From positions 896,001 through 960,000 of the forward strand of contig OZ241877.1 of the NCBI GenBank assembly GCA_965203095.1: 64,000 nt of DNA, in the 5' to 3' direction. This DNA comes from Bdellovibrionales bacterium. Its GTDB lineage: Bacteria > Bdellovibrionota > Bdellovibrionia > Bdellovibrionales > UBA1609. Position numbers: made by a program. Of the stretch, positions 15,001-24,000 are shown piece after piece. Position 1 is the first letter of the stretch. Each line of letters starts with the position of its first letter.

Positions 15001-18000
15001 ATAAAAAACCATGCTCCTCGATTTTGAGGTTCTTCTTGAAGCCAAATAATTTTTGAAAGACAAGGGAATCCGTTTAAAGCCGGATTTAAAGCAGTATCGG
15101 GAAAAGGATAAAGTTGCTCTAAACGAAAAACTACTGCTCTCTTTTTCTTAGAGGAATTTTCTCTTTTAGAAAGTTCCGAATAAAAATCATAATACACCTT
15201 GCCACTACAGAGGACTAAAGTCTCAATATCTCTTGGGTCTTGCCCTTCTTGATCCCAAATCAATTCTTCAAATTTTCCATAAATCAGATCCTCTCGGCTG
15301 GCCATCAGTTCTTCCCTTCTTAAAAGAGATTTTGGAGTCATAATAATTAAAGGCTTTCTCTCTTCAAGAAGGACTTTTTGCCTTCTTAAGGCATGAAATA
15401 AATTGCTCCCTTTTGTGAAATTGCAAAGCCTCATGTTGTTTTGAGCACAAAGCTGTAAAAATCGCTCCATATAAGCACTGGAATGTTCCGGCCCCTGCCC
15501 CTCATAACCATGGGGCAATAGCAAGACAATATCTGTTTTTTTCAACCACTTCATTTCCCCAGAAGAAATAAATTGATCGATTATAATTTGAGCACCATTG
15601 GCAAAATCCCCAAACTGAGCTTCCCAAAGAGTTAAAAAATCAGGGGCTAAACAAGAGTTGCCATACTCAAAAGCCAAAACCGCCATTTCAGATAATGGAG
15701 AGTTATAAAGGCAAAATTCCTGATTGTTGTTTTTAGCTAACTGTTTTAAGGGCGAAAGGGTTTTGCCCGTTTCATAATCGTAATACACTGCATGGCGGTG
15801 GGAAAATGTCCCTCTCTTGGAATCTTGCCCTGTCAAGCGGACGGAAAAGCCCTCTTTTAACAAAGAACCATAAGCCACCAGCTCACATGTTGCCCAATCT
15901 AATTTGTTTTCCGACAAAGCTTGCCTTCTTTTTTGAAGGATTTTTTTAAACTTAGGATTGAGATTTATTCCTTCCGGTTCCATAGAGATAATTTTTAAAA
16001 CTTCTTCCAGTTTTTGTTTTTCAAGAGATGTGCTTTTAAGAGCTTTTTTTGTAATTTTGTCCTCATCCCCCACATAATCTTTTTTTGAAAAAGATCTTTT
16101 AGATTTTCTGAATTGCTTAAGTGCATTCTCCCAATGGCTTTCTGCTTGCTGGATCAAGCTCTCTGCCTTTTCACTGTTTAAAACATTCCCTTTAATGAGA
16201 TCTTCTTTATAATGGATTAAAAGGCTCTGGCATTTTTTGATTTTTTTTGACATTTCCGGTTGAGTAAAAGAAGGCTCATCCCCCTCATTGTGCCCATACT
16301 TCCTATAACCAATCAGATCGATAAAAACATCTGAACCCAACTCTTGACGAAAGCGACAGGCCATGTCCATAGCTTTAAGACATGAGGGCAAATCATCTGC
16401 ATTCACTAAAAGCACCGGTGCTCCAATAGCTTTAGCCATATCTGAGGCAAATAGGCTGGATCGCCCCTCAATGGGATCGGTTGTAAAACCCACTTGGTTA
16501 TTTAAAATAATATGAATAGCCCCACCCACAGTATAGCCCTTGAGTTGAGATAGTTGCAGAGTCTCACTTACAGAACCTTGCCCGCAAAAAGCGGCATCGC
16601 CATGAATGAGAACAGGCAGAACAGATTTTCTTTGTTGCGTGTCTTTATTTTTCCGCTGAAGGGCACGGCTCACCCCACAAACCACTGGGCCAATAGCCTC
16701 TAAATGACTGGGGTTATAAGCCAAATACAAAGAGCAAGGGCCACTTTTAGTCTGCCTTTGAGAGGAAAATCCCACATGGTGTTTTACATCACCAGTCCAA
16801 TCGCCCTCTTTAAAGGTTAATGACTGTTTTCCTCCATCAAATTCTGAAAAAATAGCTTGAGGATTTTGCCCCAAAATATTGACAAGAACATTAATTCGCC
16901 CTCTGTGAGGCATGCCTATTGTTAGATTTTTCATCCCCATACTGGTCCCTTTTTCTAAAAGATAATCCAACATAGGGATTAGGGCGTCTAAACCTTCTAA
17001 AGAGAATCGCTTTTTCCCAAGAAAATAAAAATGAACAAATTGTTCCCAAGTGACAGCTTGGCTCAAGCTTTTAAAAGCTTGGATCTTTTCCTCCTTAGAG
17101 AGAGAAAAATCCTTTTGCTCAAACTCATTAAAAAACCAGTTTCTGACTTGTGGAGGGCAAGCTCCTACTTGAAGAGCTAATGTCCCGCAGTATTTTTCCT
17201 CTAAAAAAAAGAGAACATCTTTTAGAGGTTTTTTTATGCCTAAAAGGCTTTCTGTAATGGCAAAACTTTGGGATAAATCTTTGTCTGTGATTTGAAAATT
17301 CTCCAAAGTGGGAAAGCCTTTGTTAGGGTTATCTCCAAGAGGATCGAGCTGGGCTTTAAGATAGCCATGATCTCTATAATGTTGAAACAACTGAAAAACC
17401 TTTAACTCTTTTTCTAAGGAGGAAAAGCTTTGTTGGCTATCCATACCGGAATGCAAGCCTTGGAAAAACCATCGCCAAGAATCCTCTACCTTTGCCGGAT
17501 CTTGCAGATAGGCTTTATAAAGCTCTTCAGAATAACTTAAGTTGGCTTGGCTTAACTGATCTTCTGCTCTATATTTTGGCATACTTGCACCCATTCTATT
17601 TTAGAAGTGTTTAGATTCAACAGGAATTTTTTAAAAAAGCCCTTAAAATCCTTTTCTTGAAGAGATTTTTTCCACTTCAAGGGCTGTTTTTCATGATAAA
17701 ATAGTGCTGGAATTATGGGCTGAGGGTAGCCTTTTTGCTGAATGTGCTGTATAAACAAGGCTCTAAAAACCGAACTATCACATGCTAAACAAGTGGACAC
17801 TTTTTTTTGCTCAAGTTTTTAGCCATGCCGGCTTAGTCTATTTGATTTTTGTCGGGAACTGGCAGGACTGGAGTATTTGCCTGCTGGTTTATTTTTTTAC
17901 AGGCTGTTTGGGCATGACTGTGACTTATCACAGAGGGCTTTCTCATAAAGCTTGGGCTATGCCAAAATTGTTTGAATATGTGGGCACAGTTTGTGCCAGC

Positions 18001-21000: not shown

Positions 21001-24000
21001 CCAAAAAAAACTGGCCTACACTGCTTAATTTTATATGAAAAAGCTCTCTTTACAAAAACAATCAGCTGGCCTGAAAATTGCAATTACAGGCCACACTTCC
21101 GGCATAGGGAAAGGGCTATATAACTTTTATATAAAGGATCATCAAGTGATGGGTTTTTCCCGATCTAATGGTTTTGATATTGAAACAAAACAAGATAAGA
21201 TCTTGGAAAAATCAAAAAACTGCGATATTTTTATCAACAATGCTTACAGTGGCTTTGCTCAAACTGACTTGCTTTTTAAATTATGGGATTTTTGGCGAAA
21301 TAAGGAAAAGCTAATAATCAATGTCAATAGTATGATCCGCGATTTGTCTTTCCCCTATATAAAAACCCCGCCTTTTTCTAAATACAAAATTCATAAATTG
21401 GCCCTATATCAAGCTGTGCAAGAGCTACAACAAAGCCCTTCAAAATGTCAAGTCAGCCAAATCACCTTGGGTGTGGTGGATACTTCATTTTTTATACTTA
21501 AATCTGCCCTAAATAAAGACAATAAATTGGTTTCAGAAAAAAAGATGAAAATAAAAGATGTAGTTGAAGTAGTTAATATGATTGTGACCTGTTGGAAAAA
21601 AATCAAAATACATGATATAGTTGTGGGAGAGACTAAATGAAAAACTCTTTACTTTTTTCAGAAACTTATGAAAAACTCTTCAATGAGATTCAAAAAAACA
21701 ACCTTCTACCTATTGGGGAAACAGGAACTCTCCCTATTCATAAAAGCAAAAAAGATGTTGATTATCCTAAAATCATCAAGTTTCAACATGCTTTTTCTCA
21801 TAACAAGCTTTTGGAAGATTTCAATACCACTAAGTCTCTATTAAAAAAATATGGAGAACCTGCTTTTGGAGGCTACAGTTCCTACTTTATCCAAACTCAA
21901 TATTCAGAAGTTTTAAAAATGTTGGGAGAGTTAGGTTTTTCTAAAGACCGTTATGAAGTTTACCAACTGAGCTTGAGTGGCCAGTCTGAACTTTTACCCA
22001 TAGTTGGGGATTACACTCGCGACACTCTCAATAAAATAGGCAGGAATTTTTGGCAATTGTATGTGACGGCAAAACCGGATTGGTCTTTAAAACCTCATAT
22101 TGACCATAAAGATATGAGCAAGTTTGGTTTTAAAGTTTTCCTACCTATCAATGAAGACCGCTATATCGGTTGGATTTGTAAGCACAAAAAAATACAGATA
22201 TATAAACTGTTAAAGGGGATCCCTTATTTTTTAAATGTGACACTGCCTCATTTTGCAGTAAATCCTACTTCAAGCAAGTCTATTGCCTTAAATTTTCATA
22301 TTGCTGAGGACAAAGGCATCCTCAAGGGAGAGGAAATGGAACCGGAAAAAGATATAACTTGGATAGAAAAACAAATTCCATGGATAAAGGAGTTATATGC
22401 TAACTTTGATCAAAATTGTAAGCTCATTTTTAAATAAATTGAGAGGCTTAGTTTTTAAAAAAATCCCTCTTCGTCAAATTTTGATTTCTGTTATTCTGAT
22501 GGTTTATATTTCTATCTCTCATATTATTTTACCGGCTTTTAACAAGAGCCATTTTTTGTTTTTTTCAGATTGGGTTTTGTTTTCGTTTACACCTTTAGAG
22601 TCCGTTTATGACATTTCTTGGGATGGAGGCAAAAGCTTTCTTTTAAGAGATCATAGGCAAAAAATCCCGTTTTCATTTCAAAATCAAGATTCTTTTAAAG
22701 GAAATAAGTTCATTAACTCTGTATTGTTTAATGATTATAAAACTCTCAAAGAAAAGTTTGTTTTAGATATTAAAACAAAATGCCAGTGTGAAAACCTACA
22801 ATTTTTTAAATTGAAGGGCAGTATAGCCGATCATATCATTTATAAAAAACAGCTTGAAATATACTGGAAAAAAGCACTGTGAGCCGGATTTTCTCTCAAA
22901 TTTACTATCTTCTGCTTTTTTGTTCTGGCTATTATTGGGCCTATGTTTGGTTAAATGAGCTTTCCACAGAAGGCATAAAAAAATATCTCTTATTTGCTGG
23001 TTTTTTAAACTATGTTCCCGTCCCGGCCTACCTGTTCCCTTTGTTGGGCTTGCTATTTTTTGTCTTTTGTTTGTTATGTGTTTTATCCCCTGCTGTAAAA
23101 GCTTTTAAACGATTTGAACCTTATTTTAAGATTTTAACTGCGATGCTTTATTGTCTTAATATTTCCATCCTTTTTTCTTATTATGAACATATTATTATAC
23201 ATCATCACTGTTGGATGCTCTCCTGCTGTATTATGTGCTTTCACTGCTCTAATAAAACTTTAAATTCAAAAGCCAATTTATTGGCTTTAAATTTGAATCA
23301 ATCTATTTTGTTAATAAATTATTTCATCTCCAGTTTATGGAGGATTCGCTCTTATACTCATTCGGAATCTTCTTTTTTAGATATAGTGATGGATTATATC
23401 GGGTATGGTTTGGCTGGTGCCAGGGCTGAGCCTTCATTTCTATTGCAAATTTTGTTGGATAAGCCTTATTTTTTGGCCTTTAGTTTTGTATGTGTGACGA
23501 TGTTTCAGCTATCTTGCCTGATTCCTGCTTTTTTAAATTCCCGCCGGTTATTTGTTTTATACGGAGCTTTGCTTATTGGATTTCACTTAGCAACGGGAAT
23601 TACTGTGGGAGTGTATTGGCTTTTTTCCATCCCCTCTATTTTATTTTTTCTTATTGTTGCTGAAACCTTAAAGAAAGAAGAGAGAAAGCTTTTGCTGAGG
23701 CAGAGATCTTAATATACTGATCACAGTTGAAATTTCCGGGCAAAACAAAGAAAACGGGAATCTTCAAATAAAATCCGTATAATTTTGCTTGATAAGTTTT
23801 AAGGACGATCAGGAGCAGTTGGAGCCATCGGAGGATTTGCAGGAGGATTTGCGGAAGGAGAAGATTTAAGATTTATTGACTTAGAAATCGTTTTAAATAA
23901 ATTTGTTTTTGAAAACTCCTTATTGTTTTTCATATAATCATAAGCTGTTCCTCCTTCATTATTTTTAACCATGACACTGGCCCCATGATCTAAAAGGAGT

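Follow-up and report, generated by a model that had tools for sequence, protein, structure and literature searches.

The window analysed here (the whole stretch of 64,000 nucleotides from the genome of a Bdellovibrionales bacterium) contains a run of genes that includes three membrane desaturases, and raises the question of where this organism obtains the lipids of its membranes. A preliminary description of this DNA had placed the three desaturases and an Asp/Arg-hydroxylase-like gene in one cluster at 17782..21028, and had claimed that the genome encodes no families for fatty-acid or phospholipid synthesis. Both claims hold: the cluster gives three matches to PF00487 and one to Asp_Arg_Hydrox (PF05118; Table 1), and six-frame searches, HMMs built from relatives and Pfam scans agree on the absence.

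Table 1. Positions in the window of the genes of the desaturase run and of two further genes discussed in the text
Feature	Position	Strand	Evidence
Membrane fatty-acid desaturase A, 255 aa, three His boxes	17782..18549	+	PF00487 E 6e-13
Asp/Arg-hydroxylase-like 2-oxoglutarate oxygenase, 243 aa, HxD	18664..19395	+	PF05118 E 1.3e-10
Membrane desaturase B, 287 aa, three His boxes	19402..20265	+	PF00487 E 1.2e-9
Membrane desaturase C, 253 aa, three His boxes	20267..21028	+	PF00487 E 4.3e-17
Short SDR-like protein, 201 aa, same gene run	21035..21640	+	ORF; no Pfam family at E<=0.001
Possible second oxygenase, 266 aa, HID motif, same gene run	21637..22437	+	ORF, motif; no Pfam family
161-aa protein, same gene run	22397..22882	+	ORF; no Pfam family
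277-aa membrane protein, last of gene run	22879..23712	+	ORF, 4 predicted helices; no Pfam family
ATP-grasp protein	26559..27863	-	PF13535 E 1.7e-4; blastp E 2e-23 to ORF of viral locus L195
ETF-quinone oxidoreductase, retained fatty-acid degradation route	40587..42260	-	PF21162 E 2e-24

The genome under study (G000) belongs to g1 (10 genomes), which together with g30 (4) and g29 (15) makes up three genera that lack SRP. The 14 genomes of g1 and g30 form the lipid-less set; genome sizes in this lineage are 1.2-2.5 Mb. The panel of 34 genomes comprised all 29 genomes of the three genera and 5 of the 80 other genomes of the family. Genome-wide absences in G000 were checked by six-frame family searches with PF01148, PF01066, PF01553, PF02801, PF00698, PF07977 and PF02504. 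Pfam scans covered about 980 of the 1,491 called ORFs, including all 149 with at least two predicted membrane helices, with cut-offs of 1e-5 to 1e-30 in large batches; many scanned ORFs gave no family at all. For FabI, Psd, PlsY and AccA, absence means that they were not seen in these scans, rather than in a dedicated family search. Unfiltered HMMs were made from the relatives' own CdsA, PgsA/PssA, PlsC, FabH, FabD, FabF and LpxC, and OlsB was searched with a single sequence.

Searches of G000, of g1 (0/10) and of g30 (0/4) found neither a fatty-acid synthase nor any acyltransferase, CdsA, CDP-alcohol transferase or aminolipid synthase; the count of 0/10 for CdsA in the genus, reported before, was thereby reproduced, and that for g30 is 0/4. 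Among the 14 lipid-less genomes there was no PF02801, no PF01553, PF01148 or PF01066 over cut-off, and no OlsB. FabD and FabZ were absent from G000 and from G094 in family searches. In G000 the relatives' HMMs for CdsA, PgsA/PssA, PlsC, FabH, FabD and LpxC, and the OlsB sequence, gave no match better than E 0.08, and the only match of the FabF model was a thiolase. The scanned ORFs of G000 included no family for fatty-acid, glycerolipid or lipid A synthesis, and no acyltransferase of the PlsC/PlsB/Aas or MBOAT type was found. CdsA is present in all 80 family genomes outside the three genera, and the complete reference relative G010 keeps fatty-acid synthase, acyltransferases, OlsBA, lipid A synthesis and SRP. 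Thus, as judged from sequence and with positive controls for the absences, the loss of fatty-acid and phospholipid synthesis is real.

Several candidates for residual enzymes were rejected. The best-looking HX4D acyltransferase from a motif scan is MutS, and another is a leucine-rich-repeat-like lipoprotein. PLD domains, considered as cardiolipin or PS synthase, lie in ORFs of about 1,097 aa, of which the one scanned is an SNF2 helicase (fusion). The sole carboxyltransferase of G000 was rejected as ACC: its neighbours are a biotin carboxylase and an enoyl-CoA hydratase, the arrangement found in leucine catabolism; a second one, of the ACC/PCC type, occurs in G083 and G086 and is absent from G000, G028 and G094. 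A patatin (C1:1716413-1717507) was rejected as a scavenging phospholipase, since its surroundings, with a DncV-like cyclase and HTH/M78 genes, are those of CBASS defence. PlsX had been counted as part of the loss, but the 100%-complete relative G010 also lacks PlsX (PF02504), so that its absence is uninformative.

Could the absences be artefacts of assembly or binning? The completeness of G000 is 90.4% and it may not be closed or circular, and G031 has frameshift-type breaks in rpoB, fadD and lgt. Against this, the same losses are seen in 14 of 14 lipid-less genomes, five of which are single contigs, and control genes are recovered throughout (Lgt and MlaE each in 34/34, RpoB in 30/30). Moreover, gene order records clean, nested deletions, in which the flanking genes are joined where the bracketed genes have gone: uppS-[cdsA]-rseP, acpP-[fabF]-rpiB and skp-[fabZ-lpxA]. 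The cdsA-less uppS junction is spanned by contigs from two samples of one study, which show no differences. These deletions largely refute an artefact, and that reading is scarcely credible.

A different possibility is that the organism makes its own lipids: FadD would activate fatty acids that are scavenged, and the acyltransferases and head-group enzymes would belong to unrecognised families. FadD is present in 13 of the 14 lipid-less genomes versus 2 of 15 in g29 (the genomes are kin, hence not independent), G000 still has ACP and ACPS, and 33 of 139 membrane proteins have no family at 1e-5. However, acyltransferases, CdsA, PgsA/PssA and OlsB all vanish together, GpsA was found in one of five genomes tested (G000 only), and ACP is absent from G094. 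Neither motif searches nor scans revealed Spt-like, FAR, AGPS or ElbD proteins in G000, whose PF00155-family matches are two aminotransferases lacking the Spt motif, beside enzymes of PF00266 and PF01053. The retention of FadD is accounted for by its being ancestral and by the complete beta-oxidation. Own synthesis is thus quite unlikely; with no known route to any membrane lipid in G000, its lipids most likely come from another cell.

The desaturases offer no answer to the question with which they began. Each has three His boxes and membrane helices, as expected of His-box desaturases, and would act on acyl-CoA or acyl-lipid. The family of desaturase A occurs in 4 of the 34 panel genomes, B is 40% identical to C, and the best viral relatives of C are 43% identical to it. 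Among 25 viral loci with relatives of C, three have relatives of the oxygenase beside desaturases, and in L195 the relative of the ATP-grasp protein lies near the desaturase/oxygenase genes. The 201-aa protein we take to be SDR-like from its TGxxxGIG motif alone. Since desaturases occur in 3 of the 14 lipid-less genomes, and GpsA in one of the five tested, both were rejected as lineage-wide adaptations; on present sequence comparisons the cluster is a patchy, phage-type accessory module, and neither it nor GpsA explains the phenotype.

The loss of lipid synthesis was probably preceded by other losses. LpxC is absent from all 29 genomes of g1, g29 and g30, its loss coinciding with that of SRP in all three genera, and LpxL from the four genomes of the clade tested. 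In G000 there was no match to ORFs of the lpx cluster of G010, and LptF/G, MsbA and LptD were not seen in the scans; thus neither lipid A synthesis nor Lpt transport, as in an LPS-bearing envelope, was found. By gene content, lipid A synthesis is lost in all three SRP-less genera, which is a new observation, absent from the preliminary description. The view that lipid synthesis disappeared later than SRP is supported, but two related claims are not. The third SRP-less genus, g29, was said to be spared, yet two of its genomes, G086 and G089, are without CdsA and PgsA as well. They are not sisters (RpoB tree, AU p=3.5e-5). Counted with the lipid-less genera, they bring the independent losses to three or more, and they represent an intermediate with aminolipid synthesis only: both have lost phospholipid synthesis and kept fatty-acid synthesis with the OlsB/OlsA ornithine-lipid pair, their only remaining acyltransferase belonging to the OlsA clade. 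This pathway, with olsB and olsA adjacent in G010, is shared by G010, G086 and G089 and lost in G000. Elsewhere ornithine lipid is a supplement to phospholipid; G089 seems able to make no other membrane lipid. Likewise, a single loss common to g1 and g30 is neither shown nor rejected by the RpoB tree, which gives no firm branching order for the three genera (AU p=0.248 for g1+g30, 0.424 for g1+g29; best tree g29+g30 at 46/20). The careful tree was built on 19 rows; a first tree, whose search was incomplete, omitted G025 (a fragment), G080, G085, G090 and G015.

What G000 retains fits a diderm cell: BamA/B/D, TamA-TamB, Skp, TolC, murein synthesis, complex I, cytochrome oxidase, mevalonate isoprenoids, FadD and beta-oxidation, and genes to synthesise purines, pyrimidines, riboflavin and folate; the lineage has full murein and rod-shape genes. 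Of the lipid-handling set described earlier, FadD, beta-oxidation, ACP with a weak ACPS match, MlaFED, LolC/E with LolD, Lgt, Lsp (two copies), Lnt (two copies) and GpsA were confirmed, while LolA, MlaA and MlaC, together with FadL, were not found in Pfam scans of the ORFs. The Mla locus consists of MlaE, an adjacent ABC ATPase and MlaD; a 169-aa lipoprotein encoded upstream of mlaE has no Pfam family and finds only unnamed clusters in the ESM Atlas. MlaE, found in all panel genomes, is single-copy in each of the 29 genomes of the three genera, and Lgt has intact motifs in G000. Mla and Lgt are also kept in lipid-making relatives, so that their retention is not specific to lipid-less genomes. 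Uptake of complete phospholipids or of lysolipids had been proposed; no re-acylating acyltransferase was found in G000, so lysolipids would be insufficient and intact diacyl lipids must be imported.

From which cell? Pieces about 90-99% identical, i.e., close relatives, occur in sponge-metagenome runs of another study, and the group apparently lives in sponges. Residence in or on sponge cells, with receipt of host membrane lipid as in Ehrlichia, for which use of host lipid is reported (PMC7149431), would accord with this habitat, with the loss of LPS, and with many ankyrin and Sel1 repeat proteins (and pentapeptide proteins), which fit life with sponge cells equally well. Yet Lgt is kept throughout the panel, many secreted anti-peptidoglycan enzymes, pili and fibres are kept, and purines, pyrimidines, riboflavin, folate and isoprenoids are made by the organism itself, unlike in most intracellular parasites. 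Lgt requires phosphatidylglycerol (PG), a lipid that is plentiful in bacteria but makes up little of animal cells. A sponge donor is therefore unlikely. The genes point to neighbouring bacteria: G000 has type IV and Tad pili, a T2SS, two S74-chaperone fibre proteins, TamAB, lytic transglycosylases, a glucosaminidase, M23 peptidases, a deacetylase, many secreted proteases, a nuclease and peptide importers. For one GGDEF protein the match is PDB 6hbz (E 1e-60), which we take to be the predation cyclase DgcB; type IV pili, TamAB, a DgcB-type cyclase and S74 fibres are features of a periplasmic predator of the B. bacteriovorus type. The one S13 peptidase seen matches six PBP4/DD-carboxypeptidase chains at E<=1e-10, none Bdellovibrio-type by name, so that it looks like an ordinary PBP4 and no prey-rounding DD-endopeptidase was recognised, and a PDB search with one S74 fibre protein gave no match. 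Lipid might also be gained by fusion with outer-membrane vesicles and debris in a dense sponge microbiome: without LPS, the outer membrane could receive lipid from vesicles, and both the peptide importers and a secreted PldB-like hydrolase suit scavenging. This is decidedly unlikely, as the cell keeps its machinery for contact (pili, fibres, TamAB, DgcB-like cyclase) and two membranes per cell doubling would be a large demand on a passive route.

The likeliest source of lipid is thus neighbouring bacteria, with inward movement by Mla/TamB, donor and route being what we infer. With a somewhat better than even chance, we are dealing with a reduced, aerobic diderm of a Bdellovibrio-like family, with peptidoglycan, in which both membranes are made of intact diacyl phospholipids that it obtains from such bacteria by contact predation or ectoparasitism. 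The ancestor of g1, g29 and g30 would have lost LPS and SRP, after which the outer leaflet of the outer membrane could be ordinary lipid. Foreign phospholipid would enter this leaflet on contact and move inward via the single MlaFED and/or a TamB bridge; imported PG would supply Lgt, and imported PE or other phospholipid would supply Lnt. Where import sufficed, synthesis may have decayed at least three times, via an ornithine-lipid-only state (G089) to nothing (g1, g30). FadD, beta-oxidation and the PldB-like hydrolase would burn surplus acyl chains, and ACP would be kept for lipoate synthesis (LipA, LplA/B).

To our knowledge, most known cases of a lipid-taking lifestyle are tiny parasites with a single membrane and endosymbionts of insects, and Patescibacteria have no outer membrane. 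The patescibacterial epibiont Strigamonas methylophilicida is described as having no classical route to phospholipids and as presumably drawing its lipids from a bacterial host, and Patescibacteria as also lacking nucleotide, amino-acid and cofactor pathways (10.1101/2024.03.08.584096). The missing phospholipid route, the presumed bacterial source of lipid and the genome size (1.9 Mb) are similar to those seen here. However, a single membrane with nucleotide, cofactor and respiratory loss is not found in G000, a diderm that respires, has BAM/TAM/Mla, makes nucleotides and cofactors de novo and has lipid-making close relatives; the loss of lipid genes is therefore selective. The DPANN archaea Nanoarchaeum equitans and Ca. 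Nanohaloarchaeum antarcticus also have no identifiable lipid genes, and uptake of host lipid, selective in one case, is shown by lipidomics (10.1101/2023.12.06.570485). By genes alone, the lineage studied here resembles CPR and DPANN lipid auxotrophs in having no fatty-acid synthase and no enzymes of glycerolipid acylation or CDP-DAG head groups; unlike DPANN (archaeal ether lipids, single membrane), it makes isoprenoids and supplies two membranes across periplasm and murein. Bdellovibrio bacteriovorus, while growing in the periplasm of its prey, acquires fatty acids and lipid parts from it, and shares with this lineage family-level gene order, TamAB, pili, S74 fibres, a DgcB-like cyclase and FadD; unlike in the CdsA-bearing members of the family, scavenging here would be obligatory. 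The insect endosymbionts Sulcia, Hodgkinia, Carsonella and Tremblaya have tiny genomes, far below 1 Mb, and a wall that is slight or missing, and, like Ehrlichia chaffeensis (PMC7149431), they live inside eukaryotic cells. With all of these the lineage shares Gram-negative ancestry, LPS loss, loss of some or all lipid synthesis and use of host lipid, but it differs in its larger genomes, full murein and rod-shape genes, and lack of SRP.

In the literature searched no description of the lipid-synthesis losses of this clade was found, although they may be noted in genome tables that supplement papers on sponge MAGs. A little short of an even chance is given to the fullest reading, i.e., that a walled, respiring, extracellular Gram-negative predator draws both membranes, including an LPS-free outer membrane, wholly from intact phospholipids stolen from bacterial prey via Mla/TamB, that the loss of LPS and SRP made the step repeatable, with phospholipid synthesis given up at least three times, and that G089 was left with a phosphorus-free ornithine lipid as the one membrane lipid of its own making. 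We know of no named machinery for the uptake of whole membrane lipids by CPR, DPANN or insect endosymbionts. Here, the cell that has lost synthesis is a diderm whose lipid transporters (MlaFED, TamB) can be recognised and expressed and whose Lgt depends on PG, and close relatives present three graded states (full synthesis with no LPS, aminolipid only, nothing), a natural series in which an importer may be sought by comparison. The finding also bears on how little an outer membrane requires (neither LPS nor lipid synthesis nor SRP) and on the flow of lipid among members of the sponge microbiome.

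The loss of lipid synthesis from this genome (G000) is real, and it extends across its genus (g1) and a second genus (g30). Among 109 genomes of the family, CdsA scores above the cut-off in 93: none of ten in g1, where G023 gives a single weak match (E 5.6e-4), none of four in g30, 13 of 15 in a third genus (g29) and all 80 others. In a panel of 34 genomes, comprising all 29 of these genera and five others of the family, CDP-alcohol transferases, PlsC/PlsB-type acyltransferases, ketoacyl synthase and OlsB are each absent from g1 (0/10) and g30 (0/4); the respective counts are 13, 15, 15 and 10 of 15 in g29, and five, five, five and two of the five others. 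Of five genomes tested, FabD is present in three and FabZ in two, and neither occurs in those from g1 or g30. PlsX was found in none of the five, and because these include the complete G010, from outside the three genera, its absence is uninformative.

Models built from the relatives' own proteins, run unfiltered on all six frames of G000, find no CdsA, PgsA/PssA, PlsC, FabH, FabD or LpxC; a FabF model matches only a thiolase, and a single-sequence search finds no OlsB. About 980 of the 1,491 open reading frames called were scanned against Pfam (all 149 with at least two predicted helices, and the majority both of proteins bearing a signal peptide and of cytosolic P-loop-less proteins of 130–800 amino acids, at strict cut-offs of 1e-18 and 1e-30 for cytosolic batches), and these matched no synthesis family for fatty acids, glycerolipids, sphingolipids, aminolipids, ether lipids or lipid A. 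Manufacture of lipid by unknown enzymes is rather improbable.

Gene order records the loss. The series fabH-fabD-fabG-acpP-fabF precedes rpiB/glyA in G010, G083 and G087; the order is tRNA-Pro, acpP, rpiB in G000, acpP-rpiB-glyA in the lipid-less G028, and rpiB-glyA without ACP in the lipid-less G094. The order uppS-cdsA-rseP is found in G083, G010 and G011 (also outside the three genera), and uppS and rseP are joined over about 60 bases in G028 and in G086 of g29, and over about 250 bases in G029. In G000, uppS adjoins ispA, and this cdsA-less junction is bridged without differences by an 8.5-kb contig from one sample and an 880-base contig from a second. G010 has bamA-skp-fabZ-lpxA, then more lipid A genes, and G089 (g29) has skp-fabZ; in G000, skp is followed by ribF. 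The missing lipid genes are deletions, not assembly gaps, and that the absences are an artefact is barely credible. The completeness of G000 is 90.4% (contamination 1%), and scores of 88–95% also occur in single-contig genomes of the three genera, which fits marker loss across the lineage. The genome has 1,797,770 bases, 1,780,579 of them in the main contig C1 (circularity not demonstrated) and 17 kb in a second contig, C2, with no N, 38 tRNAs and one tmRNA. SRP, LPS and lipid synthesis have been lost from it; its secreted pentapeptide-repeat and ankyrin proteins form large families, and it encodes numerous DNA methyltransferases.

Coordinates of features in G000 and its relatives (ORF ends for enolase and RpoA are from a mechanical caller)
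Feature	Location	Remark
acpP	C1:428737-428970	
uppS	882061 (end)	
ATP-grasp gene	window 26559-27863	
H+-pyrophosphatase	window 35158-37233	
Topoisomerase VI A and B subunits	L125:5853-8789	
SWIB-domain protein	L074:8405-8836	
Lipoprotein immediately before mlaE	L089:15534-16040 (C1:1068323-1068832)	169 aa
Secreted alpha/beta hydrolase	L108:1-1017 (C1:1415197-1416216)	Hydrolase_4, E 6e-44; resembles lysophospholipase PldB
GpsA	L113:14606-15853 (C1:1524859-1526109, minus)	
tRNA-Ile(GAT)	C1:1739312-1739573	three in tandem, third shorter; genome also has four tRNA-Met(CAT) calls
Enolase	L070:877-2727	about 190 additional N-terminal residues
RpoA	L109:16441-17982	514 aa, long C-terminal extension
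CBASS-like defence locus	L123:11525-16146	M78 peptidase, HTH, patatin, DncV-like cyclase
Tandem array	L128 (C2)	entire 17 kb, unit about 1,109 bases
Intermediate-state loci, G086 and G089	L228, L229, L233, L234, L247-L249	
FadD, G076 and G077	L147, L149	64-65% identity to G000 FadD, equal to g1 copies

Lipid A has also been lost, which the preliminary description overlooked. None of the 29 genomes in the three genera has LpxC, against four of five others, and SRP is divided in the same way (0/29 versus 5/5); LpxL occurs only in G010 among five genomes tested, and LptF/G, LptD and MsbA were not seen in the scans of G000. G011, a 1.6-Mb single-contig genome outside the SRP-less clade, lacks LpxC but keeps SRP, fatty-acid synthesis and CdsA/PgsA; its LPS loss is a separate event.

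The preliminary description placed the lipid loss after that of SRP, which is borne out. It also held that the third SRP-less genus was spared; this does not apply to G086 and G089, single-contig genomes of g29 in an intermediate state that it missed. Both lack CdsA and PgsA and keep FabD, FabG, ACP and FabF, with FabH seen in G086 and FabZ in G089. Each has one acyltransferase, grouping with the olsB-adjacent gene of G010 (support 99), and no PlsC-clade enzyme; OlsB is retained in both, intact in G089 and broken by one in-frame TGA in G086. These two are candidates for bacteria in which an aminolipid would be the sole self-made membrane lipid. In RpoB trees, each genus and the three together form fully supported clades, but no firm branching order among them emerges: G086 and G089 as sisters are rejected (AU p=3.5e-5), and a grouping of g1 with g30 is not rejected (p=0.248), yet is not the best tree. 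Thus, judging from this one marker gene, phospholipid synthesis would have been lost three or four times, after the loss of LPS and SRP.

Much of the rest of the envelope is kept. G000 encodes BamA/B/D, Skp, TamA, a 1,360-residue TamB, TolC, Pal-like proteins and a TonB receptor, together with MlaE, its ATPase and MlaD, LolC/E and LolD, Lgt, two Lsp, two Lnt and a DedA/VTT protein, as well as murein synthesis, rod-shape genes, mevalonate isoprenoids, respiration, and nucleotide and cofactor synthesis. Lgt and MlaE are each present in 34 of the 34 panel genomes, and the catalytic motifs of Lgt are intact in G000. Phosphatidylglycerol (PG) is the diacylglyceryl donor for Lgt; therefore, the 16 genomes without CdsA/PgsA must acquire a PG-like lipid ready-made. 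Uptake of complete phospholipids or of lysolipids had been proposed: the former stands, but since g1 and g30 have no acyltransferase, lysolipids or free acids could not be converted to bilayer lipid. FadD (nine of ten in g1, 4/4 in g30, 2/15 in g29, 5/5 others) is ancestral and, most simply, would feed beta-oxidation; FadE, FadB, thiolase, ETF and ETF-QO are present in G000. The only two g29 genomes with FadD, G076 and G077, possibly reflect inter-genus transfer or misbinning. ACP occurs alongside LipA and LplA/B, suggesting a role in making lipoate. The scans of G000 turned up no LolA, MlaA, MlaC or FadL, which leaves a gap in the import model. The lipoprotein preceding mlaE, with no Pfam family and weak PsbP/DcrB-like neighbours in Atlas, is a candidate stand-in for MlaA/MlaC.

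The cluster of three membrane desaturases and an oxygenase is confirmed, but not as a lipid-handling tool retained by the lineage: 11 of 14 lipid-less genomes lack it. The desaturase family occurs in four of 34 genomes (G000, G026, G030 and G010); in G026 and G030 it occupies unrelated positions. One desaturase matches 25 viral loci at 31–43% identity; the same oxygenase adjoins the desaturase in three, one has five desaturases in tandem, and one also carries a relative of the ATP-grasp gene. The cluster is a mobile accessory module, and for the three lipid-less genomes bearing it, it might serve to adjust stolen lipids. GpsA, found only in G000 among five genomes tested, has a signal-peptide-like N-terminal extension of 47 residues and may be exported; its three nearest database relatives (E<=1e-40) have 361–382 residues.

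We lean towards a reading in which neighbouring bacteria would be the donors, intact phospholipid entering the LPS-free outer membrane upon contact and then travelling inward via Mla and/or TamB. Bacterial donors are suggested because predator-type genes are present: pili, T2SS, S74 fibres, lytic transglycosylases, a glucosaminidase, M23 peptidases, a deacetylase, proteases, a nuclease, peptide importers and a DgcB-like cyclase. A protein of G000 matches PDB 6hbz (E 1e-60), which we take to be DgcB of B. bacteriovorus, and with gene order this points to a Bdellovibrio-like affiliation. Against the favoured reading, prey-rounding peptidases are not demonstrated among the peptidases of G000, repeat proteins of eukaryote-like type abound, and lipid-making relatives likewise keep Mla and Lgt. 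The window was found in four sequencing runs (two samples, one study), and two runs from a different study, both sponge metagenomes, account for 21 and 27 of the 30 bins in a housekeeping region, the pieces listed being about 90–99% identical; sponges are therefore a habitat of close relatives. Sponge cells as the source of lipid, set between these repeat proteins and the predator-type genes, are unlikely, and passive vesicle uptake, weighed against the same predator-type genes, is quite improbable. Import of finished lipid, by whichever route, is very likely.

Insect endosymbionts offer a precedent for lipid dependence, and B. bacteriovorus reuses lipids. Lipid auxotrophy is known in Patescibacteria (10.1101/2024.03.08.584096) and DPANN archaea (10.1101/2023.12.06.570485), and partial lipid dependence in Ehrlichia (PMC7149431). 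Neither the lineage nor its losses are described in the titles and abstract openings from a full-text literature search covering few subscription journals and no supplements. The lineage of G000 would act like CPR and DPANN, by lipid theft, yet it belongs to neither group: it is a diderm that has a wall and respires, its loss is selective, and its relatives form a graded series.
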